Of a stretch of DNA of 64,000 bases, positions 4,132 to 40,109 are shown piece after piece (positions within the stretch are counted from its first letter, which is position 1; every line of letters begins with the position of its first letter). The DNA is from Thermodesulfobacteriota bacterium (GTDB taxonomy: Bacteria > Desulfobacterota_D > UBA1144 > Nemesobacterales > Nemesobacteraceae), in assembly GCA_963667625.1 (NCBI GenBank), contig OY763921.1, forward strand, positions 713,963-777,962. The letters are read 5' to 3'. The notes below the pieces were generated by a model. The model had not been told where the DNA came from and did no database searches. It worked only from the letters and a program-made list of their open reading frames with translations. A program made the position numbers and the translations under genes.

Positions 4132-4992
4132 ATGTCTAACGTAGCACAAATAGTCAAAATGATTGCCGATGACTTCTATGGCGGTGACCTTAATCTATCC
4201 GAGAGGGGCATAGTATCTTACGACTCATGGTCGCAAATGCCGGATGTAAAATTTGTTGAGGAGATGAGAGCTTCCGGCAAGTCCGAACGCACCGTGCGCC
4301 TGTTTCTGACTTTCGTTTCTGCAATGGACCGCATGCGAGAGGCAAACAGTTTGTGGAAAGTGGCAGCGGAACTTTTCAGGTCACGTCCGGAATTCTTCGA
4401 GCCCGCCGAGGTAGTAAAAATTCCTCTGGAAACCCTTAAGTCACTTCTGAGTGAGAGCGGGGTAAGCAAGTACCACACACAGGACTCAGAAGCCTGGCAC
4501 GTTATTTCTGCCAGCTTGGTCTTGAATGATAGTCCGATCCGACGCGTAATAGAAAGTGGACATGGAGACGCCGAGGAATTACTGAAAGCGCTTAGGAGCA
4601 GGGACGAGACGGATCGCTTCAGATTTCCGCTTCTTCGCGGTCCGAAGATAGGGGCGATGTGGGTCCGGATCATGGCGAACCCGGGTGGAGCTGAGATAGA
4701 GCGCATAGAAAAGGTTCCCGTAGCGGTGGATGTTCAGGTTCGCCGTGCGACTGAGAATCTGGGGATCGCAAACACGCGAGGGCAGAAGCTCAGAGAAGCA
4801 AAACCGAAGATCCAAAAAGCCTGCCACGGAGCGGTTGCCCAGACCGATATAGGGGGACCGCCTAGGATTGCGGGAACAAGTGCGGCGCTTGATCCAGTGC
4901 TGTGGTTCTACGGCAAGTATGGTTGCAGTCATTGCGAAAAGGCAGGTAAGCAAATGCATATAAGTAGAGCTTGTAACCACTGTCAGCTTTAG
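4132..4992 (+). CDS. HhH-GPD-superfamily DNA glycosylase/lyase-like protein with C-terminal 4-Cys cluster
   Basis: FPLLRGPKIG (HhH-like), PVAVDVQVRR (Asp motif), C-terminal CSHC...CNHC. Confidence 0.6.
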   Translation: MSNVAQIVKMIADDFYGGDLNLSERGIVSYDSWSQMPDVKFVEEMRASGKSERTVRLFLTFVSAMDRMREANSLWKVAAELFRSRPEFFEPAEVVKIPLETLKSLLSESGVSKYHTQDSEAWHVISASLVLNDSPIRRVIESGHGDAEELLKALRSRDETDRFRFPLLRGPKIGAMWVRIMANPGGAEIERIEKVPVAVDVQVRRATENLGIANTRGQKLREAKPKIQKACHGAVAQTDIGGPPRIAGTSAALDPVLWFYGKYGCSHCEKAGKQMHISRACNHCQL

Positions 4993-5009
4993 CGGGGTGT
5001 TCTGTTCTT

Positions 5010-5720
5010 ATGCACCATAAAGGCGACCTGATAAAAGACCTTGAAATACTCTATTCTGCAAAACCTACCCCTGTAAGAGAAGCTTTTCGTATTCAGAAAA
5101 GACTTTCGCAAAGGGTTGTAAAAACCCCTGACCTGAAGCCTATTCACACAATTGCCGGTGCCGATATTGCTATCTGCGTTAAGGAAAAAAAGCTTGTCTG
5201 CGGAATGATTCTTTTTTCCTATCCTGAACTGGAGGAGATCGAGAGGGTATGGACTGTCTCGGATGAGGTATTTCCCTATATTCCGGGGCTTCTGGGGTTC
5301 AGGGAGGCCCCTTGCGTAATAAAGACTTTCGGCAAGCTTCGTGAGAGTTGTGACATGATCATGATAGACGGACATGGACTTGCTCATCCAAGAGGCTTTG
5401 GCCTTGCCTGTCACGTCGGGGTTTTGCTTGATATTCCGGCGATGGGCGTTGCGAAAAAATGCCTCTATGGGACTTTCAGTGAACCGGGGCTCAAGAAGGG
5501 TGAAAGAACATTGATGAGGGGAAAAGACGGCGAAGTCATTGGAACCGCTCTAAGAACCAGAGACGGTGTGAAGCCGGTTTTCGTGTCTATTGGGAACAGA
5601 GCCGATCTCGATACCTCAGTTATGATGGCACTTGAGTGTTCCCGAGGTCTTAGGATTCCCGAACCTACAAGGCTTGCCGACAAGTATGTAGGTCTGCTCA
5701 AAAAAGATGTGTGTGGATAA
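5010..5720 (+). CDS. nfi: Endonuclease V
   Basis: AGADI, FPYIPGLLGFREAP, IDGHGLAHPRGFGLACHVG, GVAK, KPVFVS, PEPTRLAD. Confidence 0.95.
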   Translation: MHHKGDLIKDLEILYSAKPTPVREAFRIQKRLSQRVVKTPDLKPIHTIAGADIAICVKEKKLVCGMILFSYPELEEIERVWTVSDEVFPYIPGLLGFREAPCVIKTFGKLRESCDMIMIDGHGLAHPRGFGLACHVGVLLDIPAMGVAKKCLYGTFSEPGLKKGERTLMRGKDGEVIGTALRTRDGVKPVFVSIGNRADLDTSVMMALECSRGLRIPEPTRLADKYVGLLKKDVCG

Positions 5721-5791
5721 ATTGCACCGCATACTTCTAAATGTGAGTATCCGGTCGGTTAAACTCATATTGTTCTAGGGAGGAATATAAT

Positions 5792-5962
5792 ATGCAGGAA
5801 CAGAAGTTAAAAACCCCTTCGGATATATATAATCGTCTTTACAAGTTGCTGAACGAAAAAATGAAAGAGGAGAGATTTGACGGGCTTGATGAGAGAGCAG
5901 AACTTACGTTGCGGACAATAGAATTTCTTGAAAGGCATCTAGAAAAAGAAGAAATAGGGTAA
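5792..5962 (+). CDS. Small hypothetical protein, 56 aa (below ORF-track cutoff)
   Basis: MQEQKLKTPSDIYNRLYKLL...HLEKEEIG, preceded by strong RBS GGAGGA at 8-nt spacing. Confidence 0.6.
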   Translation: MQEQKLKTPSDIYNRLYKLLNEKMKEERFDGLDERAELTLRTIEFLERHLEKEEIG

Positions 5963-5983
5963 TACCCAAGTAATTAAAACCAG

Positions 5984-6448
5984 ATGAGCGGTTCTGTGGA
6001 TCAGCATATTGCGAATTTCAATAAGGATTTTGAAACCTGGAGTATCGAGCTTCCGAAAGAGGCTGTTAAAAATCGACAACGGGGCAAGATCGTCAAGAGC
6101 GGGTGGACTATCTGGTATTTGTTTGGAACGGACGAAGCCGGCAACTACCTTGATTACTACGCGTCTCATCGGATGACAAACGACGGGCATGTCCGTTTGT
6201 ATGCCAACGGTAGTTTCAAGGTCCTGAATTCGTATTGCAGCACGCGCAGAGTTTCAGACGACCCGGAAGAGGACAGGCGGCTTGAGAATGAATTCTGGGA
6301 ACACAACGAGCATGTCTCACGGGAACTTGAATCTAAAGGTTTCGGGCTGGAAGGCAATGAACACCCGTCGACTATCATCAACCGCGCTTTGATTTCGTCT
6401 CGAGAATCTCATCGCAGAGTGACGAAAGGATCGGATTCAGAAGATTAA
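5984..6448 (+). CDS. Hypothetical protein
   Basis: 154-aa ORF filling the gap before the convergent carA; protein-like composition. Confidence 0.7.
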   Translation: MSGSVDQHIANFNKDFETWSIELPKEAVKNRQRGKIVKSGWTIWYLFGTDEAGNYLDYYASHRMTNDGHVRLYANGSFKVLNSYCSTRRVSDDPEEDRRLENEFWEHNEHVSRELESKGFGLEGNEHPSTIINRALISSRESHRRVTKGSDSED

Positions 6449-6506
6449 GCTTAGAGACTCTATTGCATCTTCGGTGCTGAGCCCCCGTTGTTCCCTGCCT
6501 GAGTTC

Positions 6507-7634
6507 TTACGCTGAGAAATCTTCCATCATCTCGATGAAGTCTCTGAAAAGATAGGAGGAGTCATGCGGCCCGGGCGAGGCTTCGGGGTGATACTGGACG
6601 CAGGAGAGAGGATAGTCCTTGTGTTTCAGCCCCTCGACGGTCTGGTCGTTCAGATTTACGTGAGAGACAGCGACGTTGCTTTTAAGCGAATCGGGGTCCA
6701 CGGCAAAGCCGTGATTCTGCGAAGTTATTTCTACCTTTCCGGTTGCAAGATTCTTAACCGGCTGGTTTCCTCCGCGATGCCCGAATTTTAACTTGAAGGT
6801 TTTTCCTCCGAGTGCGAGACCCAGTATCTGGTGTCCTAGACAGATTCCGAAAATGGGTTTTTTCCCGATGAGTTTTCTTACATTCTTCGAGGCGTATTTA
6901 ACCGCGGCCGGGTCCCCGGGTCCGTTTGAGAGAAAAATCCCGTCGGGGTCGGAAGCCAGTATGTCTTTAGAGTCCGTTTTCGACGGAAAAACCGTCGTTT
7001 CGCATCCAAGATCGTGAAGCTCCCTGAGAATGTTTCTCTTTATTCCGAAGTCGTAAACGGCGACTTTGAATTTTCTGGAGGGTTCGGAGTTTTTATCCTT
7101 GCTGTGGCGCCACTTTCCCGTTCCTTCATCCCATACGTAAGGCTGCGTGCAGCTTACTTCTGTTACTAGATCGCGTCCGACTATTCCCGGCGAGGAGTCG
7201 ACTTTTTCGGCTAGAGCCTCAGAGCTTGTCTCGACAGTTGAGATAATCCCCTTTATCGCTCCACCGATTCGTATGATCTTTGTAAGTTCTCTGGTGTCGA
7301 TTCCCTGTATGCCGGGTATTCCATGCCTTGAAAGAAAACTGTCAAGGCTCTCTTTTGATCTCCAGTTGCTCGGGTGATCCCAGTATTCCTTTACGACGAA
7401 ACCACTTAGGTGAGGTTTTTCTGATTCGAAATCCTCGGGGTTGATTCCGTAGTTGCCTATTTCGGGGTAGGTCATTACGATGATCTGACCGTTGTAGGAA
7501 GGATCCGTGAGTATTTCCTGGTAACCAGTTAGAGAGGTATTGAAAACAACTTCGCCGGTTGCCTCTCCCTGGGCTCCGAAGCTTGTGCCTTCGAATACTT
7601 TTCCGCCTTCAAGCGCGAGGTAAGCTTTTTTCAT
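6507..7634 (-). CDS. carA: Carbamoyl-phosphate synthase small subunit
   Basis: [34 protein letters not shown]. Confidence 0.97.
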
Positions 7635-7834
7635 TGTTCAGGGGGTTAAAATATATACGCCTGTGGTAATGTCAAATGTTCCTTTCCCGTGGAGACTAAC
7701 ACGGCGTGTTCCAAATTGCTCTCTGTGGAAACCCGGCTTATTCCAATTAGCAAATTCTGTTGTATTATTTCTGGTCTTAAGGGGCGATTGCATCCAGAAG
7801 CTTGTCGCTGTCGATGTAGCGCGAAAATACCGAT

Positions 7835-9622
7835 ATGAACTGGGACCTTACTTCTTATTTTCCCGAATTTCAGGGAGTTGAATATAAAGAATTCAAAGAG
7901 AATCTCTCCGGAGGCATAAAGAGTCTCGACCAGAAGGCTTCGGCTTCTGAACCTCTTTGCAGAGAAAACCTTGCGTTCTGGAAAGATATCTTCCAGGAAA
8001 CGGAAAGGTTCATAAGCCAATATTCCCATATCCGTTCCTACGTGGGATGTCTCAGCGCTTCGGATTCCAACAGGGAGGACTATCTGCGCGAGGAAGCGGC
8101 AATTTCCCTTCTCGGTTCGGATCTCGAGAAGCTTGAGGTTCAGCTGCAAAGAGCGCTTCGGGATGTCGACGAAGATCTGCTTTCCGAGTTCGTCTCTTTC
8201 CCGGATATCGAGTCGGCTTCCTATTACGTGAGGCGCGTTTGGCGAAATTCCCGGTTCACCATGTCCGCTCCGAAGGAAATTCTGGCCTCGGAACTCGGAG
8301 TCGACGGGATAAGCGCCTGGGGGCGGATCTACGATACCGTATCTTCCAAGATGACGTTTGAGATGGTTTACCCCGACGGGACGGAAAAAAGACTTCCAAT
8401 GTCCCAGAGAAGATCGCTTATGGAAAGTCCCGACAGAGAGATAAGAAAAGCCGCTTTTTCCGGGGGCAACGAAGCCTGGGAGGATCTTGAAGACGTGGCC
8501 GCCGGGACCATAAACGCCATATCGGGAACCAGGCACACGCTCTACAGGCACAGGGAAATCGATCATTTCCTCGACGTAGCGCTCTTTGACGCGGCGATCT
8601 CAAGACAGACTCTGGATTCCATGATGGAGGCCATACGGGAGACGGTCGAGCTCCCAAGAAGCATTCTTAGGCTCAAGGCCGAGACGCTGGGGCTGGACGG
8701 GGTGTCGTGGTACGATCTGGGAGCCCCAATGAATCTTGGCAAAACCGGCGGGGTTGACTGGAGTGGTGCGAAATCTATGGTTTCCGATTCTTTCTCGGCT
8801 TCCTATACGCGCCTCGGCGGGTTTTTTGACCATATGTGCCAGAGCGAGTGGATAGACTGGGAAGTAAGGGAAGGAAAAAGACCCGGGGGTTTCTGCACGG
8901 ATTCTCTTCTCACCGGGGAGTCAAGGATATTCATGACATATAACGGCGGGGTAGGCGACATACTCACCCTCGCTCACGAGGCGGGCCATGCCTTTCATTC
9001 TCACGTGATGAGGGAACTTCGTCCCTATGCACAGTTCTACCCCATGACGCTTGCCGAAACCGCTTCAACTTTCGGGGAAATGCTGCTTGCCGAGGGACTG
9101 CTGCGGGATCCCTCAACGAGCGTTGAAGACAAAGTGCTTGTGAGGGATGCAGAAGTAAACCACGGGGCCATATATCTTCTGGACATTCCCGTCAGGTATG
9201 AGTTCGAAAGGAAGCTCTACGAACGGCGTGCCGAAGGGGAACTGACAGTGAGCGAGCTAAAGGACCTTATGACCGAGACCCAGAAGGAGATTTTCGGAGA
9301 CGTGCTTTTGGAATGCGACCCGTTTTTCTGGGCTTCAAAGCTTCATTTCTACATAACGGGCGTCAGTTTCTATAATTTCCCCTATACTTTCGGCTACTTG
9401 CTGAGCAGGGCGCTTTTCGAGAAATTCAGGCAGCATGGCGAGGAATTTATTCCAGTTTACGAAGAGTTTCTAGCTCTCACCGGTTCAGACGATGCGGAAG
9501 GGGCGGTAAAAAGATCCATCGGGGACGATATAACGAGCAAAGATTTCTGGAAAGAGGCAATTCTTACCCTCTTACGACCGCTTGAGGATCTAAAAGAACT
9601 TCTGCCCTCGGTTACTACATAA
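7835..9622 (+). CDS. pepF: M3B oligoendopeptidase F
   Basis: WDL N-terminus, GKRPGGFC, TLAHEAGHAFH, AETAS, FYNFPYTFG. Confidence 0.9.
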   Translation: MNWDLTSYFPEFQGVEYKEFKENLSGGIKSLDQKASASEPLCRENLAFWKDIFQETERFISQYSHIRSYVGCLSASDSNREDYLREEAAISLLGSDLEKLEVQLQRALRDVDEDLLSEFVSFPDIESASYYVRRVWRNSRFTMSAPKEILASELGVDGISAWGRIYDTVSSKMTFEMVYPDGTEKRLPMSQRRSLMESPDREIRKAAFSGGNEAWEDLEDVAAGTINAISGTRHTLYRHREIDHFLDVALFDAAISRQTLDSMMEAIRETVELPRSILRLKAETLGLDGVSWYDLGAPMNLGKTGGVDWSGAKSMVSDSFSASYTRLGGFFDHMCQSEWIDWEVREGKRPGGFCTDSLLTGESRIFMTYNGGVGDILTLAHEAGHAFHSHVMRELRPYAQFYPMTLAETASTFGEMLLAEGLLRDPSTSVEDKVLVRDAEVNHGAIYLLDIPVRYEFERKLYERRAEGELTVSELKDLMTETQKEIFGDVLLECDPFFWASKLHFYITGVSFYNFPYTFGYLLSRALFEKFRQHGEEFIPVYEEFLALTGSDDAEGAVKRSIGDDITSKDFWKEAILTLLRPLEDLKELLPSVTT

Positions 9623-10535
9623 GATTCCCGATAACCCTCTCTACGGGGGAGAGTGACTTAACCAGTATGTCAACTACTATGCCGAGCATTATGAGAAGCA
9701 TGTAGATGATTGAAGCCGAGAATGCCTTTCCGTAACCACGGTTGGCAAAAACGCTCCTTACTACTAGGTAATTAAAGTATATTCCGGATACTGCGGCGAA
9801 AGCCGCAAAATAAACGGTGTTTGTCCCCGTGAGCCAGAGGATGAAAGTCAGGGGTATAAGGGAGAGGGAGTAGATAAGTATCAGCATGTTGGTGTACTTC
9901 GTCCCCAAGGCGACGGGAAGAACGTTTATCCCGGCTTTTTCATAATCCTTTTTATATTTCTGCGCGAGCACCCAGAAGTGGGGAGGCTGCCAGAGCATCA
10001 TGAATATGAATACTATCATCGCGTCGAGCTGCAGGACGGGTTTTATTGCGGTGTAGCCTATAAGAACGGGAAGGGCGCCCGGTATTCCCCCAAGTACTGT
10101 GCCGAAAGGGGAAGTTCTTTTGAGGAAAAGGGTGTAAATAAGAGTGTAGCTTAGAATCGCGAGGAGAATGAGCGCCGCGTTTACATAATTGAAGTAAGAA
10201 AGCGAGATGAAGAGAGCCACTACCATCATGAGTATCGAGATTGCCCACGCGTTTCGATCTCCGAGAACTCTCAGGGCTTCCACCCTTTTGTTAAGGCGGG
10301 TCATCTGCTTGTCGATTTTCTTGTCGAGCAGGTTATTCAGAATTGCCGCTCCACCAGCGCTAAGAAGAAGGGAGGCAACGCATAGAAAAACCGTTTGTAA
10401 AGAGGGGAAGGCCCGGTTGGCCACTACCATTCCCGCAAGGCCGGTAAACGCCACGCTCATTATTATTCCGGGCTTAGAGAGGATAACGGCGGAAACCGCC
10501 ATGTTTCCCACGGATTTTTTCTGCGCTTCGCTCAT
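9615..10535 (-). CDS. ctaB: Protoheme IX farnesyltransferase (heme O synthase)
   Basis: NNLLDKKIDKQMTR, LKRT, GALPVLIG, WQPPHFW; lies in the oxidase operon. Confidence 0.92.
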   Translation of the reverse strand: MSEAQKKSVGNMAVSAVILSKPGIIMSVAFTGLAGMVVANRAFPSLQTVFLCVASLLLSAGGAAILNNLLDKKIDKQMTRLNKRVEALRVLGDRNAWAISILMMVVALFISLSYFNYVNAALILLAILSYTLIYTLFLKRTSPFGTVLGGIPGALPVLIGYTAIKPVLQLDAMIVFIFMMLWQPPHFWVLAQKYKKDYEKAGINVLPVALGTKYTNMLILIYSLSLIPLTFILWLTGTNTVYFAAFAAVSGIYFNYLVVRSVFANRGYGKAFSASIIYMLLIMLGIVVDILVKSLSPVERVIGNLM

Positions 10536-31391: not shown

Positions 31392-32603
31392 TTACCCTAC
31401 CTCAATTGCCTCCTTTCTGTCCATTTCCCTCAGCAAATCCATATCCAGATACCTCCTGCTTCCCCACTTGGTCCCCGATATATGCCTTAACCTCGCCGCG
31501 CACAACATCAACGCGCTCTGCCCGTCAGGGAAAGCCCCCACCACCCGGGATCTTCTCCTTATCTCCTTTATGATCCTCTCCATCGGATTGTTCGTTCGGA
31601 TCCGCCGCCAGTGAGAAGACGGAAACCCGTAGTAACCAAGAGTCTCTTCAATATTCTCCTCTACCCACTTCGCCGCGGAACCCAGTCGCATCTCTTTCAG
31701 CTTCTTTATAACTTCCCTTGCTTTTGCCCTCGCGACCTCCTTGCTCTCTGAAGCATGTATGGCCTTTAACATCAGACTCACCTCCCTGACTCTCCCCCGA
31801 GGCACGTGACTGAACACGTTTCTGTAGAAGTGAACAACGCAACGCTGCCAAAGCGCCTCCGGGTAAAAATCCCCTATGCTCTCAACCAACCCCAGACACG
31901 CGTCGCTTATGAACATCCTTACCCCGCTAAGCCCCCTCTGCTTAAGATGACGCAGAAACCCGCTCCACCCGGCCTTGTCCTCCTTCGCCCCCTCCACAAC
32001 CCCCAGAACCCTGCGATAACCGTCTGTACTCACCCCTATGGCTATAAGAACCGAAACGTTGCCCACTTCTCCTCCCCAGCTGCGCTTGAGACTCACCCCG
32101 TCGAGATAAACATAGGGAAACTCTCCTTCTATAGGCTTGTTTCTCCACTTCTCTATGTGCTCGTACACGCTTTGGTTGAGCTTGGAGACAGTGGCCGAAC
32201 TCACCCGCGTGTCCCACAGCGCCTCGGTGATATCCGCCACCCGCCGCGTGGATACTCCCGCAAGATACATCTCAACCAGGGCTTCTTCCACCGATGACTC
32301 CCTTCGCCTGTATCGCTCTATTATAGCGGTCTGAAACCTCTGCTCCCGAAGCTTGGGTACCTTAAGCGTCACTTCCCCAGCCTTGGTCTGGAGCTTTCTT
32401 GTGTAGCTTCCTGAGCGATAGTCCTGGCGGTCTGCGCTTCGCTCGTACCTGCCTGCCCCGACCATCTCATCTGCTTCAGAGTCAAGGACCTTGTTGAGTA
32501 CTTCCTCTACCGTATCGGTGACTATGGAGCTTAGGTGATCCTTAAGCTCTTTGTGGTTAATCTGAATTACCTTTTTGGGGCTCTTCGCTGTATAATCTCT
32601 CAT
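31392..32603 (-). CDS. IS256 (Mutator-type) DDE transposase
   Basis: RSGSYTRKL, GVSTRRV, YLDG, FISDA, WQRCVVHF, RTNNPMER. Confidence 0.96.
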   Translation of the reverse strand: MRDYTAKSPKKVIQINHKELKDHLSSIVTDTVEEVLNKVLDSEADEMVGAGRYERSADRQDYRSGSYTRKLQTKAGEVTLKVPKLREQRFQTAIIERYRRRESSVEEALVEMYLAGVSTRRVADITEALWDTRVSSATVSKLNQSVYEHIEKWRNKPIEGEFPYVYLDGVSLKRSWGGEVGNVSVLIAIGVSTDGYRRVLGVVEGAKEDKAGWSGFLRHLKQRGLSGVRMFISDACLGLVESIGDFYPEALWQRCVVHFYRNVFSHVPRGRVREVSLMLKAIHASESKEVARAKAREVIKKLKEMRLGSAAKWVEENIEETLGYYGFPSSHWRRIRTNNPMERIIKEIRRRSRVVGAFPDGQSALMLCAARLRHISGTKWGSRRYLDMDLLREMDRKEAIEVG

Positions 32604-33768: not shown

Positions 33769-34350
33769 ATGCAAAGATGTCCATGGTGCGAGCGAACCGA
33801 TCTTGAGAGGGATTACCACGACAACGAATGGGGAGTGCCCGTTTTCTCCGATGAAAAGCAGTTTGAGTTTCTGGTCCTCGAGTCCGCCCAGGCGGGCCTC
33901 AGCTGGCTTACGGTTCTTCGCAAAAGGGAGAACTACAGGCGTCTTTACGACGGGTTCGATCCGGAAAAAGTTTCTAGATACGGAGAGGAAAAAATACAGA
34001 AGCTCATGTCGGACAGCGGAATAATACGCAACCGAAAGAAAATAGAGGCTTCAATAAACAACGCCGTGCGGTTCCTTGAGATACGGGATGAGTTCGGAAG
34101 CTTCTCCGATTACCTGTGGGGGTTTACCGGCGGAGTTCCGGTTACTAATGCCTGGGAGGAACTCTCGGAAATACCGGCCTCTACGGAACTTTCAGTGACG
34201 GTGAGCCGCGATCTTAAGAAACGGGGGTTTCGTTTCATGGGTCCCACTATTGTTTACTCCCATCTTCAGGCGACAGGGGTGGTGAACGATCATCTGGTTT
34301 CTTGTTTTCGCTACGAAGAGATCCTGGATTTAAGCAAGGGAGTCAAATAG
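33769..34350 (+). CDS. tag: DNA-3-methyladenine glycosylase I
   Basis: RCPW, YHDNEWG, LESAQAGLSW, IIRNRKKI, GFRFMGPT, NDHLVSC. Confidence 0.95.
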   Translation: MQRCPWCERTDLERDYHDNEWGVPVFSDEKQFEFLVLESAQAGLSWLTVLRKRENYRRLYDGFDPEKVSRYGEEKIQKLMSDSGIIRNRKKIEASINNAVRFLEIRDEFGSFSDYLWGFTGGVPVTNAWEELSEIPASTELSVTVSRDLKKRGFRFMGPTIVYSHLQATGVVNDHLVSCFRYEEILDLSKGVK

Positions 34351-34950
34351 CCGCATCAGGTAATCTCCGCTTTCCCTGCTGAACTTGACTATTTTTTCGA
34401 TCTTTTCCTCGCTGAGGTCTTTTTCGATTCTTCTTACCGTTTTTTTTATCGCCAGGGAGTGCGCGGGATCTTCCTTTGCGTGAACCTCTATAAAAGTCGA
34501 GGGGTTGGGGACTGTTTCTAATTCGGGGAAAAGAAGCCCCGATACGTTTTCAAACAGATAGGAATGTCCGAGTATAGCAAGAGGAAACTGCTCGGCGGCG
34601 TTCTGCAGAAACTCATCGTACTCCCTTACGATCTCAAGGCAGAAAGGGTCTATCTCCTTTTCCCCGAGGTCCTTTAGGTCACGAAGGGCAATCTCGGCGT
34701 GCCCAAGCTCTCCCTGTGCGCAGGAATGGAACCTTTTGCTTAGGTAGGGGTCGGAGTCTTTGGTGTTTACGCTTGCCATGTTGACCGCTCTTTGACTCAG
34801 AAACTCGATTATATAAAAAGTGAGCAGGAATTTTGCGTAGGTTTCCCGGCTGAGGTTACCGGAAACAAGGCCCTTTACCTCTTCTTTGTCCTTCACCCTG
34901 CGAAGATAGGTTTCGACTTCAGTGTCAAGCAGCGATTCAAGCTTTTCCAT
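34330..34950 (-). CDS. Heme-oxygenase-like diiron oxidase (HDO; CADD/PqqC/TenA fold)
   Basis: E...ELGH...FE...HAKEDPAH ligand pattern; all-helical appearance. Confidence 0.65.
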   Translation of the reverse strand: MEKLESLLDTEVETYLRRVKDKEEVKGLVSGNLSRETYAKFLLTFYIIEFLSQRAVNMASVNTKDSDPYLSKRFHSCAQGELGHAEIALRDLKDLGEKEIDPFCLEIVREYDEFLQNAAEQFPLAILGHSYLFENVSGLLFPELETVPNPSTFIEVHAKEDPAHSLAIKKTVRRIEKDLSEEKIEKIVKFSRESGDYLMRLFDSLA

Positions 34951-35258: not shown

Positions 35259-35567
35259 TTACCGCTTTTCGGGCGGTGTCGATTTGATCTCAGCTGCAAA
35301 TTGTGCATGAGCCTCCGGGTCAACGGGCCTGTGTTTGATCTTTGTGCTAGCAGGATTCTTGCCAAGGTAGTTTTCGTCTTTCCAATCTGTAGATGGTCTT
35401 ATTGGTCTTGGTTCGAAGCCTCCACCGCAACTGGGGCAGACATTGTCCAAAACAGTATCAACGCATGTGGTGCAAAACGTACATTCATATGTACAGATAC
35501 GTGCTTCTAGTGAGTCGGGTGGCAAAGCCCTGTTGCAGTGCTAGCAGGTTGGTCTGAGCTCCAACAT
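35259..35567 (-). pseudogene. DUF1272 family gene with in-frame amber stop at codon 9
   Basis: RBS AAGGAG, then MLELRPTC*HCNRALPPDSLEARICTYECTFC; TAG at 35541-35543. Confidence 0.8.
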
Positions 35568-35594: not shown

Positions 35595-36353
35595 TCAGGT
35601 CGTTTTTTTATTTGCTATCCTGATCCCTCGTATTATCAGGACCGCCGCGGCATATGAAAGGATAATGACGGGTCCGGCAGGCATATCGAACGCTACGGCA
35701 AAGGCGATACCGGAAAGAACCGCCGCCACTCCGCAGAGCCACGCTATAAGATACGGCCTTTTGACGTGTACAGCGGCCAAAGCCGGGAGTATAAGGCTTG
35801 CAAAGACAACATAGACGCCAACCAGTTGAACCGATGAGGTGATGGCGAGAGCGAAGAGCAGGTAAAAGCCCATGTTGCTTCGCACCCCGGGCTTGGAAAA
35901 CCAAGCCAGCAATATCAGCGCGTAAATAGGTGCGTGCTTCGCTACGTCTGTCCATGTTACAAACAGCATCTGTCCCGAAAGCAGGTGCTTTACTTCATCT
36001 CCGCCGTGAGGATGATCGGCGAGGAGCAAAAGCGCCAGGGACGCGGCCAAAATGAAGGCGCATCCTATGATCGCTTCCTGTCGCTCGGGCATTGCCGTTT
36101 CCACCTTGCGGAAAAACAGCCCTGCCGCGACCGCGCAGCCAAGCGCTATGAACTGGATCAGCCACGGGGACGGATCATGGATAACCATGTTGCCGACCAC
36201 AAGCCCGAGTCCCGCAATCTGCGCCACTGCAAGATCAATAAAGATGATGCCGCGGCGGAGCACCTCAATACCAAGAGGAGCGTGTGTGAGCGCGATCATG
36301 AGGCCGGCCGCCACTGCGGGCCCGATTATTTCCAGGAGTTCACTGCCGAACAT
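35595..36353 (-). CDS. Metal ABC-3 family permease (ZnuB/MntB-like)
   Basis: GIEVLRRGIIFIDLAVAQIAGLG, GVYVVFASLILPA; hydrophobic. Confidence 0.88.
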   Translation of the reverse strand: MFGSELLEIIGPAVAAGLMIALTHAPLGIEVLRRGIIFIDLAVAQIAGLGLVVGNMVIHDPSPWLIQFIALGCAVAAGLFFRKVETAMPERQEAIIGCAFILAASLALLLLADHPHGGDEVKHLLSGQMLFVTWTDVAKHAPIYALILLAWFSKPGVRSNMGFYLLFALAITSSVQLVGVYVVFASLILPALAAVHVKRPYLIAWLCGVAAVLSGIAFAVAFDMPAGPVIILSYAAAVLIIRGIRIANKKTT

Positions 36354-37260
36354 CGTATGTCCCTCTCAACAAAGCTATAGTTCTGTCAAACAGCGCGAAC
36401 AGATCGCCGCTTTGCTCGTCACCGCCAACGGTGTAAGGAAGCACGATTGCCCTTGTACCGGTTTTCTCCGACAACCACTCGCTTGCGTCATCAGGATCGG
36501 AAGGGGTACGGATAATTACGTCCGCCGGACTGCTTCTTAACTTTCGCAGCAAATTCTTCAGATGAGAAGTTGTCGGCGGAATGCCGGGTTTTGGTTCAAG
36601 TGTCCCCACTTGCTTTATTCCGAGCCAGTCAATCAGATAAGTAAACGATTTGTGATGAACCACAACCGGTTTTCCTTTAAGTACGGCAGCCTCGGATTCC
36701 CATCGGGAAATCGCCTTGCGCAGGCGGGATGAAAAATCCCGGTAACTATCCTTATAGAAAGAGGCATTTTCAGCGTCGATTCCAGAAAGCCGCTCCGCAA
36801 GCACTTCGCCCACCGTCATCAGGTTGTACGGATTCAGGTGCATGTGGGGGTTGCCTTCCGGATGCACGTCTCCCATGCTGCGGTCAACTACGACCGGAAC
36901 TTCAAGCATGGTGACCAGATCCGCAGCCATAAGGTAACCGATGGAGCCGGGTTGGAGGTCGGAACTTGCCTTCTGAAGCAGAATCGGAAGCCAGCCTATC
37001 TCAAGACTCGCACCCGAGCAGAGGAGCAAATCGGCTTTGCGTGCCTTGGATATCAGGCTTGGACGCGCCCGTATGTAATGGGGGTCCTGTATGGCCGAGG
37101 TAGCTGAAAACGCTTCCACCTTGTCACCGCCTATTTCTTGGGCCAGTGCCGCCCATTCCGGTTCGCAGGCAAATACTTTTACCTTTGCGAAAGAATATGC
37201 CGGGGCCACGAAAAGCAGCCCCGGCAGGAGGATGGAAAGGAAAGTAAGGTAACGTTTCAT
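36340..37260 (-). CDS. Cluster A-I metal-binding protein (ZnuA/TroA family); start reassigned to 37260
   Basis: Signal peptide, QDPH, GDVHPEGNPHMHL, HKSFTYL, EPKPGIPP. Confidence 0.9.
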   Translation of the reverse strand: MKRYLTFLSILLPGLLFVAPAYSFAKVKVFACEPEWAALAQEIGGDKVEAFSATSAIQDPHYIRARPSLISKARKADLLLCSGASLEIGWLPILLQKASSDLQPGSIGYLMAADLVTMLEVPVVVDRSMGDVHPEGNPHMHLNPYNLMTVGEVLAERLSGIDAENASFYKDSYRDFSSRLRKAISRWESEAAVLKGKPVVVHHKSFTYLIDWLGIKQVGTLEPKPGIPPTTSHLKNLLRKLRSSPADVIIRTPSDPDDASEWLSEKTGTRAIVLPYTVGGDEQSGDLFALFDRTIALLRGTYDVRQ

Positions 37261-37273
37261 GCTGCGGTTGCTC

Positions 37274-38707
37274 TTAGTATTTATGCGCGGCGTGGGCACC
37301 TATGCCCATTATGTACTGGAGCAGAATCTGGTTGTCGCTTAGATCCTCTCCTACTTTTTCGTAGTTGTACTGAAGGCGTATACGCGAGAACTCGCTGTTT
37401 GACCAGTCGCCCATGACCGCTACCGCGTAGGGGTCGTGATCTATCCCTGAATCCTCGGGAGAGTATATCTGGGAATAGCGCGTGCCTATTCTCCATTTCG
37501 GCGAGAACTTGAAAACCCCTTGCGCGTACCAGCCATGGCTTCCCCCGTCGAGATGCTCTTCGTGAACTTCGTCTCCTTCCGCAAGAGTATAGATGCCTTC
37601 TTCATCGCGCCAGAAATACTCGCCCTGGAGAAGCACCTCTTTTTCGCGGGCGTTTCCGGTGGGGGCCCACACGTAGCGGAGATCAAGCGCGTAGAGTCTC
37701 GTGTCGCCCGTGAACATGCCGGCGGTGAAGAACTCCTCGAAATCCTCCTCGTGCTCTTCTTCATGTTCTTCCTCATGACCATGCTCGTCTTCGGCGGCAT
37801 GCTCTCCCTCTTCTTCGTGTCCATGAGTGCCGCCACCGCGGCCGCTTGCCTCTCCGTCAAGCAGATACCCCCCGATTCTCCAGGATGAATTCTCTCCTAT
37901 GTCGCCGCCTACCCGCAAGAAGGCGCTGAATGAGTTTATGTCGTTACCCTCAGCTCCCGCAAACGGGAAATCGTCTCCGCGGAAAACACCGCCTCCCGCC
38001 TCGACATAGAAGTCGGTTGGGAGCACGTATGAAATCTGCGCCCCGGTATCGTTAAAGGCCTTGTCGAGAAACACCCTGTATGGCAGGGGGCGGTCGGCGA
38101 AATCGTCAGAGTGGGAGTGATGCTCGTTCAGGTATCCCATAGTCCAGAACGCGCGGCCCATTCTTATGCTTGCTCCCGCTGGAAGCCCGAGGCCGGGAAG
38201 GGTCTCCACGTATGCTTCCTCAAGCTCTATCTCGACCCCGTCTCCATGGTCTGCAAGAGCCGTGGTTATGTGACCGTAGAATTTATCGTCAACGCTTGTC
38301 GAAAAATTAAATTCGGTTTCCCCGAGAGAGATTCCTTCCGCCCCGCGTTCTCCCTCGTGTCCCAGGACAAACCCGGGAATTTCGTCCTCATCCGAAGAAA
38401 AGGCGGCGAATCGTCCGCCCAGTATCGCCCCGATTGAAGGATTGAGGTTCCTGTTGTAGATGACCCTGCTGGGGTAGGCGCTATCCTTGCTCTTCGAGTA
38501 AGTGGTTTTAGCCTGAGATGCTTCGGTTTCCATCTCGGCGAGTTTTTCTTCCATCTTTAAAATCCGGTTCTCATACTCCGATCTCATGGTCTGTATCTCC
38601 TTTCTTAAAGCTTCTATATCCTGGTCGGAAGCGGCAGAGGCGGAGATGTGAGAAAATGGTAAAATGGCAAAAAACGCGGTTATGACCGCGAAACGTAATG
38701 TATTCAT
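37274..38707 (-). CDS. Outer-membrane beta-barrel protein with His/Glu-rich insert (putative metal porin/receptor)
   Basis: Signal peptide, coiled coil, alternating beta-strands, LNEHHSHSDDF, HGHEEEGEH...HEEEHEEEHEE, C-terminal GAHAAHKY. Confidence 0.75.
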   Translation of the reverse strand: MNTLRFAVITAFFAILPFSHISASAASDQDIEALRKEIQTMRSEYENRILKMEEKLAEMETEASQAKTTYSKSKDSAYPSRVIYNRNLNPSIGAILGGRFAAFSSDEDEIPGFVLGHEGERGAEGISLGETEFNFSTSVDDKFYGHITTALADHGDGVEIELEEAYVETLPGLGLPAGASIRMGRAFWTMGYLNEHHSHSDDFADRPLPYRVFLDKAFNDTGAQISYVLPTDFYVEAGGGVFRGDDFPFAGAEGNDINSFSAFLRVGGDIGENSSWRIGGYLLDGEASGRGGGTHGHEEEGEHAAEDEHGHEEEHEEEHEEDFEEFFTAGMFTGDTRLYALDLRYVWAPTGNAREKEVLLQGEYFWRDEEGIYTLAEGDEVHEEHLDGGSHGWYAQGVFKFSPKWRIGTRYSQIYSPEDSGIDHDPYAVAVMGDWSNSEFSRIRLQYNYEKVGEDLSDNQILLQYIMGIGAHAAHKY

Positions 38708-38711
38708 TTTT

Positions 38712-38796
38712 TCCTCCTTAAGTTTAAAAAGAAACTACTGTTTCCCGATTTTGTACTCGGGAAACCCTGAAAAATTTCTTTACTGCTTTAGGAGGA
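38712..38796 (-). promoter_or_regulatory. SD-sequestering nested hairpin downstream of leader ORF 1
   Basis: UCCUCCUAAAG (38786-96) pairs with CUUAAGGAGGA (38712-22); AAAGAAAU (38774-81) pairs with GUUUCUUU (38728-35); inner 9-bp stem at 38740-65. Confidence 0.75.
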
Positions 38797-39072
38797 GAGG
38801 GGAGGTCCGCGGGTGATTCCCGCATCGTAATTGTCCCGAACGATTATAACGTCAGTGGGTGACTGTGGGATGTGTTCCGCATGGCGAAGAACACAGGCCC
38901 CACTCATGGCGCCGGGACTTGTGTAGTCCTGATACTTGGCGTTAAGACAGATCTCGCAGGCAGTTCCCTCATGTTCGTGTTCCAAGGAACCGTACTCGGC
39001 CGCATGGACAAAGGAGAACATCTGCGCTCCCAGGAAAGCGATTGTCAGTAGTAAGGAAAGTGCCTTGCTCAT
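38788..39072 (-). CDS. DUF2946/CutF/CruR-like secreted leader peptide with CxxC and C-terminal RGPP
   Basis: Signal peptide ending VHA, HEHEGTACEIC, ends ITRGPPLSS*. Confidence 0.8.
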   Translation of the reverse strand: MSKALSLLLTIAFLGAQMFSFVHAAEYGSLEHEHEGTACEICLNAKYQDYTSPGAMSGACVLRHAEHIPQSPTDVIIVRDNYDAGITRGPPLSS

Positions 39073-39080
39073 CTTTATTG

Positions 39081-39105
39081 TTAAATGAGAAATATTTTCA
39101 TTTAA
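39081..39105. promoter_or_regulatory. Fur-family operator-like palindrome
   Basis: TTAAATGAGAAATATTTTCATTTAA, 8-bp perfect arms, 8 bp upstream of the leader start codon. Confidence 0.65.
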
Positions 39106-39254
39106 TTTACCTTAGAAAAAAGTGCGGTGTCAATGATGTGAACAAGGTGGAGAGGAAAACATTGGTGTTAAAATCTCTATCAGCTTGTCAAAGATTACAC
39201 AATTGTACCACGGGTATTACACACCACAGTCTCAATTAAGGCTGCTTGCAATAG

Positions 39255-40109
39255 TCAGTCATCCTCGAATTCGATTTCTCGAGCGATTACAGTTCCTGAA
39301 CTTGTTCTCGAGCCTTCGACTTCTATGCGTCTGCCGACGGCGAGGTCATTGGCATTGCCGTGCTCAAAGCGGGTTGAAGAATTGTGTATTACGAGGGTGC
39401 TGCCGAGAAGGAAGGATTGGGAGTCAACAATGCTGGTGATTCTGCCCTCAATTTCATAGTAATCATCATAATAATTGTCATCATCGTCGTCGTTATTATG
39501 GTAGTAATCATCGTCATATTCTCCATCCTCGAACTCGATTTCTCGGGCTGTTATGGTTCCCGAACTTGTTCTTGAGCCTTCGACTTCTACGCGTCTGCCG
39601 ACGGCGAGGTCATTGGTGTTGCCGTATTCAAAGCGGGTGGAGGAATCATGCGTTATCAGGGTGTTGCCCAGGAAAAAGGAACGAGAATCAACAATGCTGG
39701 TGATTGCGCCCTCGATCTCGTAATAGCCCTCGTAATCATCGTCGTAGTCTCCATCCTTAAATTCAATCTCTCGAGCTGTGGCGGTTCCCGGAGTTATTCT
39801 TGAGCCTTCGACTTCTACGCGTCTGCCGACGGCGAGGTCATTGGCGTTACCGTATTCAAAGCGGGTTGAGGAGTCGTGAATTATGAGGGTGCTGCCAAGA
39901 AAGAAGGACTGGGAGTTAACAATGCTTGTGATTGGGCCCTCGATCTCGTAATTGGAAGCGATATTTCTTAACCCCGTGTCAGTCTGTTCTGTAGGTCTTG
40001 CTGTATCGTTTGTTTCTGTGTTGTCGGTATTTCCACCGCTACAGGCTATCGCACCGAGCATGAGTAGCAAAGCTACAACTGCTAACCTTAGAGAATTGTT
40101 GATTAACAT
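39255..40109 (-). CDS. Lipoprotein with three DUF5666-like repeats
   Basis: Lipobox GAIAC; three 66-aa repeats (YEIEG.IT...FEYG...LAVGRRVEVEG...AREIEF). Confidence 0.8.
   Translation of the reverse strand: MLINNSLRLAVVALLLMLGAIACSGGNTDNTETNDTARPTEQTDTGLRNIASNYEIEGPITSIVNSQSFFLGSTLIIHDSSTRFEYGNANDLAVGRRVEVEGSRITPGTATAREIEFKDGDYDDDYEGYYEIEGAITSIVDSRSFFLGNTLITHDSSTRFEYGNTNDLAVGRRVEVEGSRTSSGTITAREIEFEDGEYDDDYYHNNDDDDDNYYDDYYEIEGRITSIVDSQSFLLGSTLVIHNSSTRFEHGNANDLAVGRRIEVEGSRTSSGTVIAREIEFEDD
39261..39950 (-). repeat. Three ~198-bp intragenic direct repeats
   Basis: Units 39753-39950, 39525-39722, 39261-39458 share long identical DNA runs such as GAGCCTTCGACTTCTA(C/T)GCGTCTGCCGACGGCGAGGTCATTGG. 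Confidence 0.9.

Follow-up and report, generated by a model that had tools for sequence, protein, structure and literature searches.

A probable omr-znuAII-znuBII-type metal uptake operon of a Thermodesulfobacteriota bacterium without an ATPase gene and with a permease lacking the coupling helix

The window analyzed in this work is a 64 kb stretch (genome positions 713963-777962) of a Thermodesulfobacteriota bacterium (assembly GCA_963667625.1, contig OY763921.1), whose genome consists of one contig of 1.86 Mb and whose nearest relatives are metagenome-assembled genomes (MAGs) labelled Candidatus Dadabacteria or Thermodesulfobacteriota. The locus studied here, described in window coordinates, most likely represents a four-gene, envelope-spanning operon for the uptake of Zn(II). 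Three of its genes, all on the minus strand, had been recognized in an earlier interpretation made without database searches (the sequence-only reading). The first encodes an outer-membrane protein (OMP; 37274-38707, 477 amino acids), an exported porin-like barrel. It is followed by the gene of a ZnuAII-type substrate-binding protein (SBP; 36340-37260), which has 306 amino acids with a signal peptide if translation starts at the ATG of MKRYL..., and by the gene of a ZnuBII-type permease with the ABC-3 fold (35595-36353, 252 amino acids). The longest open reading frame (ORF) for the SBP is 36340-37299; the ATG at 37260 leaves 13 nt after the OMP stop codon, and the start of the permease gene overlaps the end of the SBP gene by 14 nt. 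The coordinates, the 13-bp gap and the 14-bp overlap given by the sequence-only reading were thus reproduced. The genes are real; homologues were found across phyla with E-values of 1e-60 to 1e-295. Beyond the bounds of that reading lies a fourth member, a leader ORF of 94 amino acids (38788-39072, minus strand), together with the promoter and the operator. The data presented below establish the gene content, the folds, the absence of an operon ATPase throughout the family, the deletion of the coupling helix, the monophyly of the clade, the homology with the Vibrio cluster, and the conservation of operator and leader; from these features we infer which metal is carried, in which direction and by what energy, and also the dimeric or trimeric state of the proteins and the translational arrest switch.

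A tblastn search of a plasmid collection with the permease as query yielded a match on the 2.06-Mb Vibrio campbellii replicon NZ_CP050465.1 (locus L085). This replicon, a record with only two annotated features under the name 'plasmid unnamed1', probably represents the second chromosome of Vibrio, judged by its size and content. At the matching, unannotated locus, genes for an OMP (4915-6057, 380 amino acids), an SBP (6029-6973) and a permease (6977-7771) follow each other in the same order as in the window. Identities to the V. campbellii proteins determined by BLASTP were 34% for the OMP (E 7e-65), 43% for the SBP, ZnuA2 (E 1e-78), and 37% for the permease (E 8e-43). A gene cluster listed as omr-ZnuA2-ZnuB2, with V. 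campbellii named as a carrier, has been described in a study of the Zur regulon, and in the table of the V. parahaemolyticus regulon the transcripts of omr, znuAII and znuBII show the strongest rises (1034, 543 and 283 fold, respectively; PMC9817125). Expression of ZnuAII (VPA1307) of V. parahaemolyticus increases when zinc is limiting, and the protein then contributes to growth (PMC3794297). The locus in the window very probably belongs to this omr-znuAII-znuBII family. Taking this relationship into account, the view of the sequence-only reading that the architecture is uncharacterized has to be narrowed: the family has a name and is tied to zinc, and what stands is that the literature searched yielded nothing on the lack of an ATPase or on the coupling helix of ZnuB2-type permeases. 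The locus adds one more copy to a family that bears a name and is mechanistically unexamined.

The sequence-only reading had pointed out that there is no ABC ATPase gene in or beside the operon. This was borne out: none of the ten flanking ORFs encodes a nucleotide-binding domain (NBD), and a search of the whole genome with PF00005 gave no match inside the 64-kb window. The closest match, a 639-amino-acid frame with two ABC domains, is approximately 43 kb from the operon. A canonical Tro-like operon, comprising genes for a DtxR-like regulator, an SBP, an NBD and two ABC-3 permeases, was found approximately 137 kb away.

As the sequence-only reading had proposed, homologous operons were surveyed for the absence of the NBD. 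The survey comprised the best 80 of 518 permease relatives (one genome per species), each with 10-kb flanks. The host lineages include Dadabacteria, Alpha-, Beta- and Gammaproteobacteria, Planctomycetes, Spirochaetes, Verrucomicrobia, Lentisphaeria, Nitrospinales and Flavobacteria. The order OMP-SBP-permease was kept in 74 loci. Of the six exceptions, four (L026, L027, L043 and L051) were truncated at the end of a contig, and two came from betaproteobacteria, one (L059) with the OMP gene on the opposite strand and one (L069) without an OMP gene. Not one of the 80 operons contained an NBD gene. An NBD of any kind was present within 10 kb in only nine loci, and in three of these (L059, L065 and L069) it was co-oriented and located 1.6-2 kb downstream. 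The downstream NBD of L065 was rejected as a partner of the cassette, being LptB encoded next to LptC/LptA, and that of L059 was rejected as belonging to a ZrgA, MerC, NBD, FtsX/MacB-permease (ZrgBC-like) zinc system with its own membrane subunit. Annotation covered L059 and L065; the corresponding region of L069 resembles that of L059. In the control set of canonical ABC-3 loci from the same host genomes an adjacent NBD gene was found by the same method in 20 out of 20 cases, and the Tro operon of the source genome also has one. The missing operon ATPase is a family trait. Clustering of the flanking ORFs in the related loci revealed no other conserved partner gene besides the leader, which is the only widely conserved flanking gene of the cassette.

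Of 30 host genomes searched, seven carried no ABC-3 genes besides that of the cassette. These seven, which include two Pelagibacterales, two Leptonemataceae, a Rickettsiales and a Maricaulaceae genome, are MAGs of uncertain completeness. In all of them the best matches to the ZnuC model and to a fragment of the Tro NBD were at the level of generic ABC ATPases, in searches that both discriminate poorly: the ZnuC model gave 112 bits with the Tro-type NBD and about 95-108 bits with generic ATPases, and the Tro query comprised only the first 50 residues of the NBD. A ZnuC/MntA-type NBD strictly co-occurring with the cassette, which the sequence-only reading had regarded as the decisive counter-evidence, was not seen in this set, with the reservation that applies to MAGs. 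The result from the seven genomes is supporting evidence, not proof, that borrowing of an ATPase is in general impossible.

The permease matched the Pfam ABC-3 family (PF00950) with 65 bits, in two separate pieces. Its AlphaFold2 (AF2) model had a mean confidence score (pLDDT) of 94.8, and the top Foldseek match of the model was PsaC (7kyp; TM-score 0.75), followed by BhuU, BtuC and HmuU. When a profile of 47 family members was aligned with E. coli ZnuB (PDB 9oko), ZnuB residues 150-166 appeared as an insertion. This segment contains the coupling helix of ZnuB, which was assigned to residues 154-162 by cryo-EM (PMC12236471); in PsaC, two coupling helices are in extensive contact with the ATPase (PMC8346216). 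In a joint alignment, the segment between transmembrane helices (TM) 5 and 6 was 32 residues long in all 26 canonical permeases, in which it carries an EAA-like D/E-x-x-A-x-x-x-G motif, and 12-14 residues long in all 48 cassette permeases, that of Vibrio included (13 in the permease of the window). In each of the 30 genomes searched, the Pfam ABC-3 match was interrupted around profile positions 143-169. Judged from these alignments, every member of the clade has lost about 19 residues, among them those of the coupling helix. Inspection of this helix had been suggested by the sequence-only reading, and its outcome agrees with the survey of the operons.

The rest of the permease does not look degenerate. 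H24, D40, Q45, E85, E93, T172 and Q176 are invariant across phyla, and a DHPHGG motif is located at the periplasmic end of TM4. D40 is in TM2; the position of the His in the D36/H40 pair of ZnuB is taken by A44 or by the invariant Q45, depending on the alignment register. H24 is an invariant His in TM1 specific for the clade. The cytoplasmic loops are also highly conserved (R34, E85, P89, Q92, E93, P155 and R158). In a maximum-likelihood tree the cassette permeases and the canonical permeases were separated by a long branch with 100/100 support, and by this phylogeny the cassette permeases form one clade of single origin. The family profile retrieved 431 clusters (50% identity) at E <= 1e-30 among 1.84 billion representative proteins. 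The possibility that the cassette is a decayed remnant of a canonical system was rejected on account of the invariant intramembrane residues and the deep monophyletic clade.

The SBP matched the ZnuA family of Pfam (PF01297) with 129 bits, and AztC was its best NCBIfam model. The nearest solved structures are PsaA and MntC. H61, H139 and H203 align with ligand positions of PsaA, H203 occupying the position of PsaA Glu205, and the four histidines H61, H133, H139 and H203 were invariant in 56 out of 56 family members. The conserved Glu/Asp pair of the Mn/Fe-type proteins was not found in the SBP. In cluster A-I binding proteins, His in place of Glu points to zinc and away from Mn/Fe. The substrate of the cassette is probably zinc.

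In the OMP, a signal peptide and a periplasmic coiled coil (residues 28-63) precede a barrel of approximately 16 strands (AF2 model, pLDDT 79). Apart from a match of the coiled coil to FapF, searches with the sequence gave no Pfam family and nothing useful from NCBIfam or from solved structures. With the model as query, Foldseek found the trimeric porins V. cholerae OmpT, OprP/OprO, DcaP and OmpF (E 1e-12 to 1e-9), and the channel is probably trimeric as well. An NEHHxHxDDF loop (residues 194-203) and a C-terminal GAHxAHKY motif are invariant, and residues 293-321 form a disordered, variable loop rich in His and Glu. A TonB-dependent receptor, which would have 22 strands, a plug and a TonB box, was considered and rejected: the protein has 477 residues and about 16 strands, and gave no TonB_dep_Rec or Plug match in Pfam. 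The sequence-only reading, which had assumed a dedicated non-TonB porin, was correct in this respect because the AF2 model shows a porin-like 16-strand barrel without a plug and with an N-terminal coiled coil.

The only promoter-like site detected between 35000 and 39400 is a sigma-70-like sequence at 39104-39133 (minus strand; TTGACA, 18 nt spacer, TAAATT), which agrees with the consensus in ten out of twelve positions. One base downstream of the -10 hexamer ends a palindrome, AAATGAAAATATTTCTCATTT (39083-39103, minus strand), with the 7-1-7 core TGAAAAT-A-TTTCTCA, a putative operator for a Fur-family repressor, probably of the Zur type. The pattern TGARAWWNWWTYTCA occurs twice in the 1.86-Mb genome; shuffled genomes gave 0-1 matches. 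The second copy directly precedes a pair of genes for a Fur-family regulator and a MerC-family protein (genome 32094-32571). Eleven related loci share the box in a position upstream of the leader gene or the OMP gene, and a 12th match (L080) falls inside the SBP gene. Since the regulon has two sites and genes for MerC-family and ZrgA proteins adjoin the cassette in the betaproteobacterial locus L059, a Zur-like role of the regulator seems more likely. In the source genome the gene of the regulator (152 amino acids) is followed by that of the MerC-family membrane protein (128 amino acids; genome 31700-32571 for the pair). In the Burkholderiales locus L059 a MerC-family gene (9463-9858) is situated between the ZrgA and ZrgBC-like genes adjoining the cassette, and MerC-like proteins may be part of zinc regulons.

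The 94-residue leader starts with a signal or anchor segment, continues with the metal-type motif HEHEGTACEIC and a variable middle part, and ends with RGPP-LSS-stop, 77 nt before the start of the OMP gene. It matched no Pfam or NCBIfam model, DUF2946 included. In an alignment of 28 homologues H23, H34, C39 and the C-terminal R(G/A)PP were conserved and the middle part varied. Upstream sequence was available for 66 loci, and in 41 of them a profile search found a leader preceding the OMP gene. RGPP or RAPP was present in 37 of these 41 leaders, 2-9 (mostly 3-4) residues before the stop codon. RAPP and RGPP are motifs that have been shown to arrest ribosomes, and an enrichment of them upstream of genes for metal homeostasis has been described (PMC12992588, PMC10951233, PMC9426467). 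By its sequence features, the leader looks like an arrest peptide of the RAPP/RGPP class. In eight Dadabacteria relatives (L005, L006, L007, L008, L010, L011, L013 and L021) a second copy of the leader ORF was seen between the OMP and SBP genes, at about 8650-9000 of the respective locus (L006: 1907-2380), and the copy in L010 has its own operator box (8687). The source genome has the first copy only.

Between the leader and the OMP gene there is a candidate RNA switch (38712-38796, minus strand), in which the end of the leader gene is predicted to pair with the Shine-Dalgarno (SD) region of the OMP gene. The pairing segments are UCCUCCU.AAG (38786-38796), within the last leader codons, and CUU.AGGAGGA (38712-38722) in the SD region. 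They enclose a 9-bp hairpin (38740-38765) followed by a T-run; this hairpin was also scored as terminator-like. For the RNA from the leader end to the OMP start the minimum free energy was -43.7 kcal/mol (z = -4.28), and none of 200 shuffled sequences folded as well. A ribosome arrested with the Pro codons (38800-38805) in the P and A sites would be expected to cover the anti-SD sequence.

Several further features were noted around the operon. A gene encoding a DUF1272 protein, a Cys-rich zinc-ribbon matching Pfam profile positions 15-57, is located 27 nt 3' of the permease gene (35259-35567, minus strand). It has a good ribosome-binding site and an in-frame TAG (35540-35542) within the N-terminal Cys-rich motif (MLELRPTC*HCNRALPP, with the asterisk marking the TAG), which could mean a pseudogene, a sequencing error or a read-through codon. 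The gene was found in none of the 80 related loci and is probably outside the conserved module. Further downstream, a 206-residue protein with weak haem-oxygenase-like and rubrerythrin-like matches is encoded at 34330-34950 (minus strand); its gene is also downstream of the cassette in 12 loci of the Dadabacteria clade, a lineage-specific synteny outside the conserved module. Directly upstream of the operon promoter a lipoprotein gene (39255-40109, minus strand) specifies three DUF5666 repeats with Asp/Tyr-rich linkers (DYDDDYEGYY, YDDDYYHNNDDDDDNYYDDYY), and a DUF5666 lipoprotein is also encoded upstream in several Dadabacteria relatives (L005, L007, L011 and L021). The G+C content is 55.5% at 36001-38000, within the cassette, and about 49-51% around it; a transposase gene of the IS256/Mutator family is at 31392-32603. 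The G+C excess, the transposase gene and the patchy spread across phyla are compatible with a horizontally moving cassette.

The model that we propose for the operon is as follows. A Fur-family repressor, probably acting as Zur, would bind the palindrome beside the promoter, and the secreted leader, with its HxHxGxxCxxC motif and RGPP end, would probably arrest its own ribosome; together, repressor and arrest leader would activate the operon at low levels of periplasmic metal. With the last leader codons masked by the arrested ribosome, the SD sequence of the porin gene would be freed and the downstream genes translated, and the arrest might be released by metal binding to the exported part of the leader or by export itself. 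The porin-like channel with its conserved His/Asp motifs would admit the metal to the periplasm without a need for TonB. There, the ZnuA-type SBP would capture the metal with its four invariant histidines and hand it over to a presumed dimer of the ABC-3-fold membrane protein. The latter has kept D40 in TM2 of the ZnuB-type metal pathway, probably has Q45 in place of the ZnuB His, has H24 in TM1, and might act as an SBP-gated facilitator or as an ion-coupled carrier without ATP hydrolysis. This reading of the membrane protein is based on the loss of the cytoplasmic coupling helix and the absence of an ATPase partner. The driving force could be supplied by the membrane potential and the very low free zinc concentration in the cytosol. 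Taken as a whole, SBP-gated, ATP-independent import of zinc appears to us a reasonably probable description of the system. For the wider claim, that the ZnuBII clade has given up its ATPase altogether, as is known of no earlier lineage of ABC-importer membrane domains, and forms an SBP-dependent zinc facilitator or ion-coupled carrier that works with a His-lined porin and a metal-sensing RGPP arrest peptide and has reached many bacterial phyla, we would give an even chance. An ATP-independent transporter was one of the two options of the sequence-only reading, the other being an NBD borrowed in trans; it is favored by the survey, the helix deletion and the seven of 30 genomes without a donor system, whereas ATP independence itself is an indirect conclusion and a Tro-type NBD is encoded about 137 kb away.

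A number of observations weigh against this model. The energy source of the family proteins is deduced, and the highly conserved cytoplasmic loops of the permease fit a gate but equally a docking site for another partner. A conventional ABC importer served in trans by the Tro-type or an orphan NBD, which would bind to the shortened TM5-TM6 loop or to another cytoplasmic surface, would explain the conservation of these loops. The complete Tro-like operon offers an NBD (genome 887536-888330) theoretically able to act in this way, a canonical ABC-3 system is present in 23 of the 30 host genomes, and the Vibrio species carrying the cluster also have ZnuABC (PMC9817125). Such an arrangement would have to work without the coupling helix, which is the main NBD contact in ZnuBC and PsaBC and is deleted in every member, and it would have to account for the seven genomes, their uncertain completeness notwithstanding, in which no other ABC-3 system was found and the scores of ZnuC/Tro-type NBDs were not above the generic level. 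The canonical permeases of the same genomes keep their NBD adjacent in 20 of 20 loci, and the age and monophyly of the clade suggest stable loss, not repeated borrowing. On balance, we consider an ATPase in trans unlikely. Loss of the motor and of the coupling helix could also mark the loss of transport itself, with the permease-like protein serving as a membrane anchor or sensor for the SBP, or with the module exporting or sequestering metal. Against this, the pore-lining Asp of TM2 is invariant across phyla, as are further polar residues within the membrane, the fold is intact in a high-confidence model, the genes are co-expressed with those of an uptake-type SBP and a porin and are induced in Vibrio alongside other zinc-uptake genes of the Zur regulon (PMC9817125), and ZnuAII supports growth at zinc limitation (PMC3794297). 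A protein that no longer imports metal is thus highly improbable.

The same caution concerns the metal in the source organism, as both the regulator and the box are more Fur-like than Zur-like. The regulator whose gene carries the same box gave 81 bits with the Fur model and 31 bits with the Zur model, below every curated cut-off, and the half-sites TGAAAAT and TGAGAAA are nearer to the Fur 7-1-7 consensus than to Zur boxes. Taken together with the Cys residues that the leader carries besides His, these features would suit an operon of the described architecture that is under true Fur control and imports another divalent metal in this organism (Fe2+, Mn2+, Co2+, Ni2+ or Cu). The SBP speaks for zinc, since its four His are invariant and the Glu/Asp pair conserved in Mn/Fe-type proteins is missing, and so do the zinc-related, Zur-regulated Vibrio homologue (PMC9817125, PMC3794297) and the location of the cassette beside ZrgA and MerC-family genes in L059. 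A box that occurs only twice in the genome would mean an unusually small regulon for an iron Fur, and the Tro operon, which includes a DtxR-like regulator, already provides for the uptake of Mn/Fe. We therefore regard a metal other than zinc as rather unlikely.

By definition, an ABC importer combines a membrane domain with an ATPase. A large and old clade that retains the SBP and the membrane fold without the ATPase gene and without the docking helix, amounting to approximately 430 clusters at 50% identity in many phyla and including abundant marine lineages, would, if our interpretation is right, break this rule. A type II ABC membrane domain would then be able to act as a secondary carrier or as a gated channel, and a third kind of SBP-dependent secondary transporter would stand beside TRAP and TTT; this would also bear on how streamlined marine bacteria could acquire zinc cheaply. 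Annotation would be affected too, as databases at present call the membrane proteins 'metal ABC transporter permease' and the porin 'hypothetical' or, for Vibrio, 'TonB-dependent receptor'.

With the cluster A-I importers ZnuABC (9oko), PsaBCA (7kyp), MntABC, TroABCD and AztABCD the system shares the PF01297 fold of the SBP with His at the canonical ligand positions, and also the type II ABC-3 fold of the permease (TM-score to PsaC see above) with its invariant TM2 Asp. It differs from them in having no NBD gene in the operon, in the deletion of the coupling helix region, in the probable replacement of the TM2 His by an invariant Gln, in the new invariant His in TM1, and in the dedicated porin and the leader peptide encoded in the operon. 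The proposed principle has analogues: in the TRAP-T (DctPQM) and TTT (TctABC) systems an SBP feeds a carrier driven by ion gradients or the membrane potential, and ZIP/ZupT proteins take up zinc without ATP. None of these is homologous to the cassette, whose membrane component has the ABC type II fold, and the comparison is one of analogy only.

The closest known system is that of the Vibrio species V. parahaemolyticus, V. vulnificus and V. campbellii, where the gene order, the short TM5-TM6 loop and the absence of an ATPase gene are the same as in the window. Common motifs are NxxHxHxDxF and the C-terminal GAHGAH(A/K)(F/Y) in the OMP, DPH and GNPH in the SBP, and IFIDLAVAQ in the permease. 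The Vibrio OMP is shorter (380 residues) and has no N-terminal coiled coil; its annotation as a TonB-dependent receptor is wrong as judged by the fold. The Vibrio cluster is controlled by a typed Zur, whereas the regulator in the source organism is an untyped Fur-family protein. As regards the leader, CruR of Bordetella pertussis, CutF of Rhodobacter capsulatus and ApdA/ApdP are likewise small exported proteins with a metal-type Cys/His motif (PMC9426467; 10.1101/2022.11.11.516240; PMC10951233; PMC12992588). Leaders of this class share with the one described here an R(A/G)PP sequence near the stop codon, a position directly upstream of an outer-membrane uptake gene, and a downstream ribosome-binding site sequestered in RNA structure. 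In the CruR/CutF class the downstream gene specifies a copper TonB-dependent transporter or an oxidase; in the operon analyzed here, in which arrest is a prediction from the sequence, it specifies the porin of a probable zinc system.

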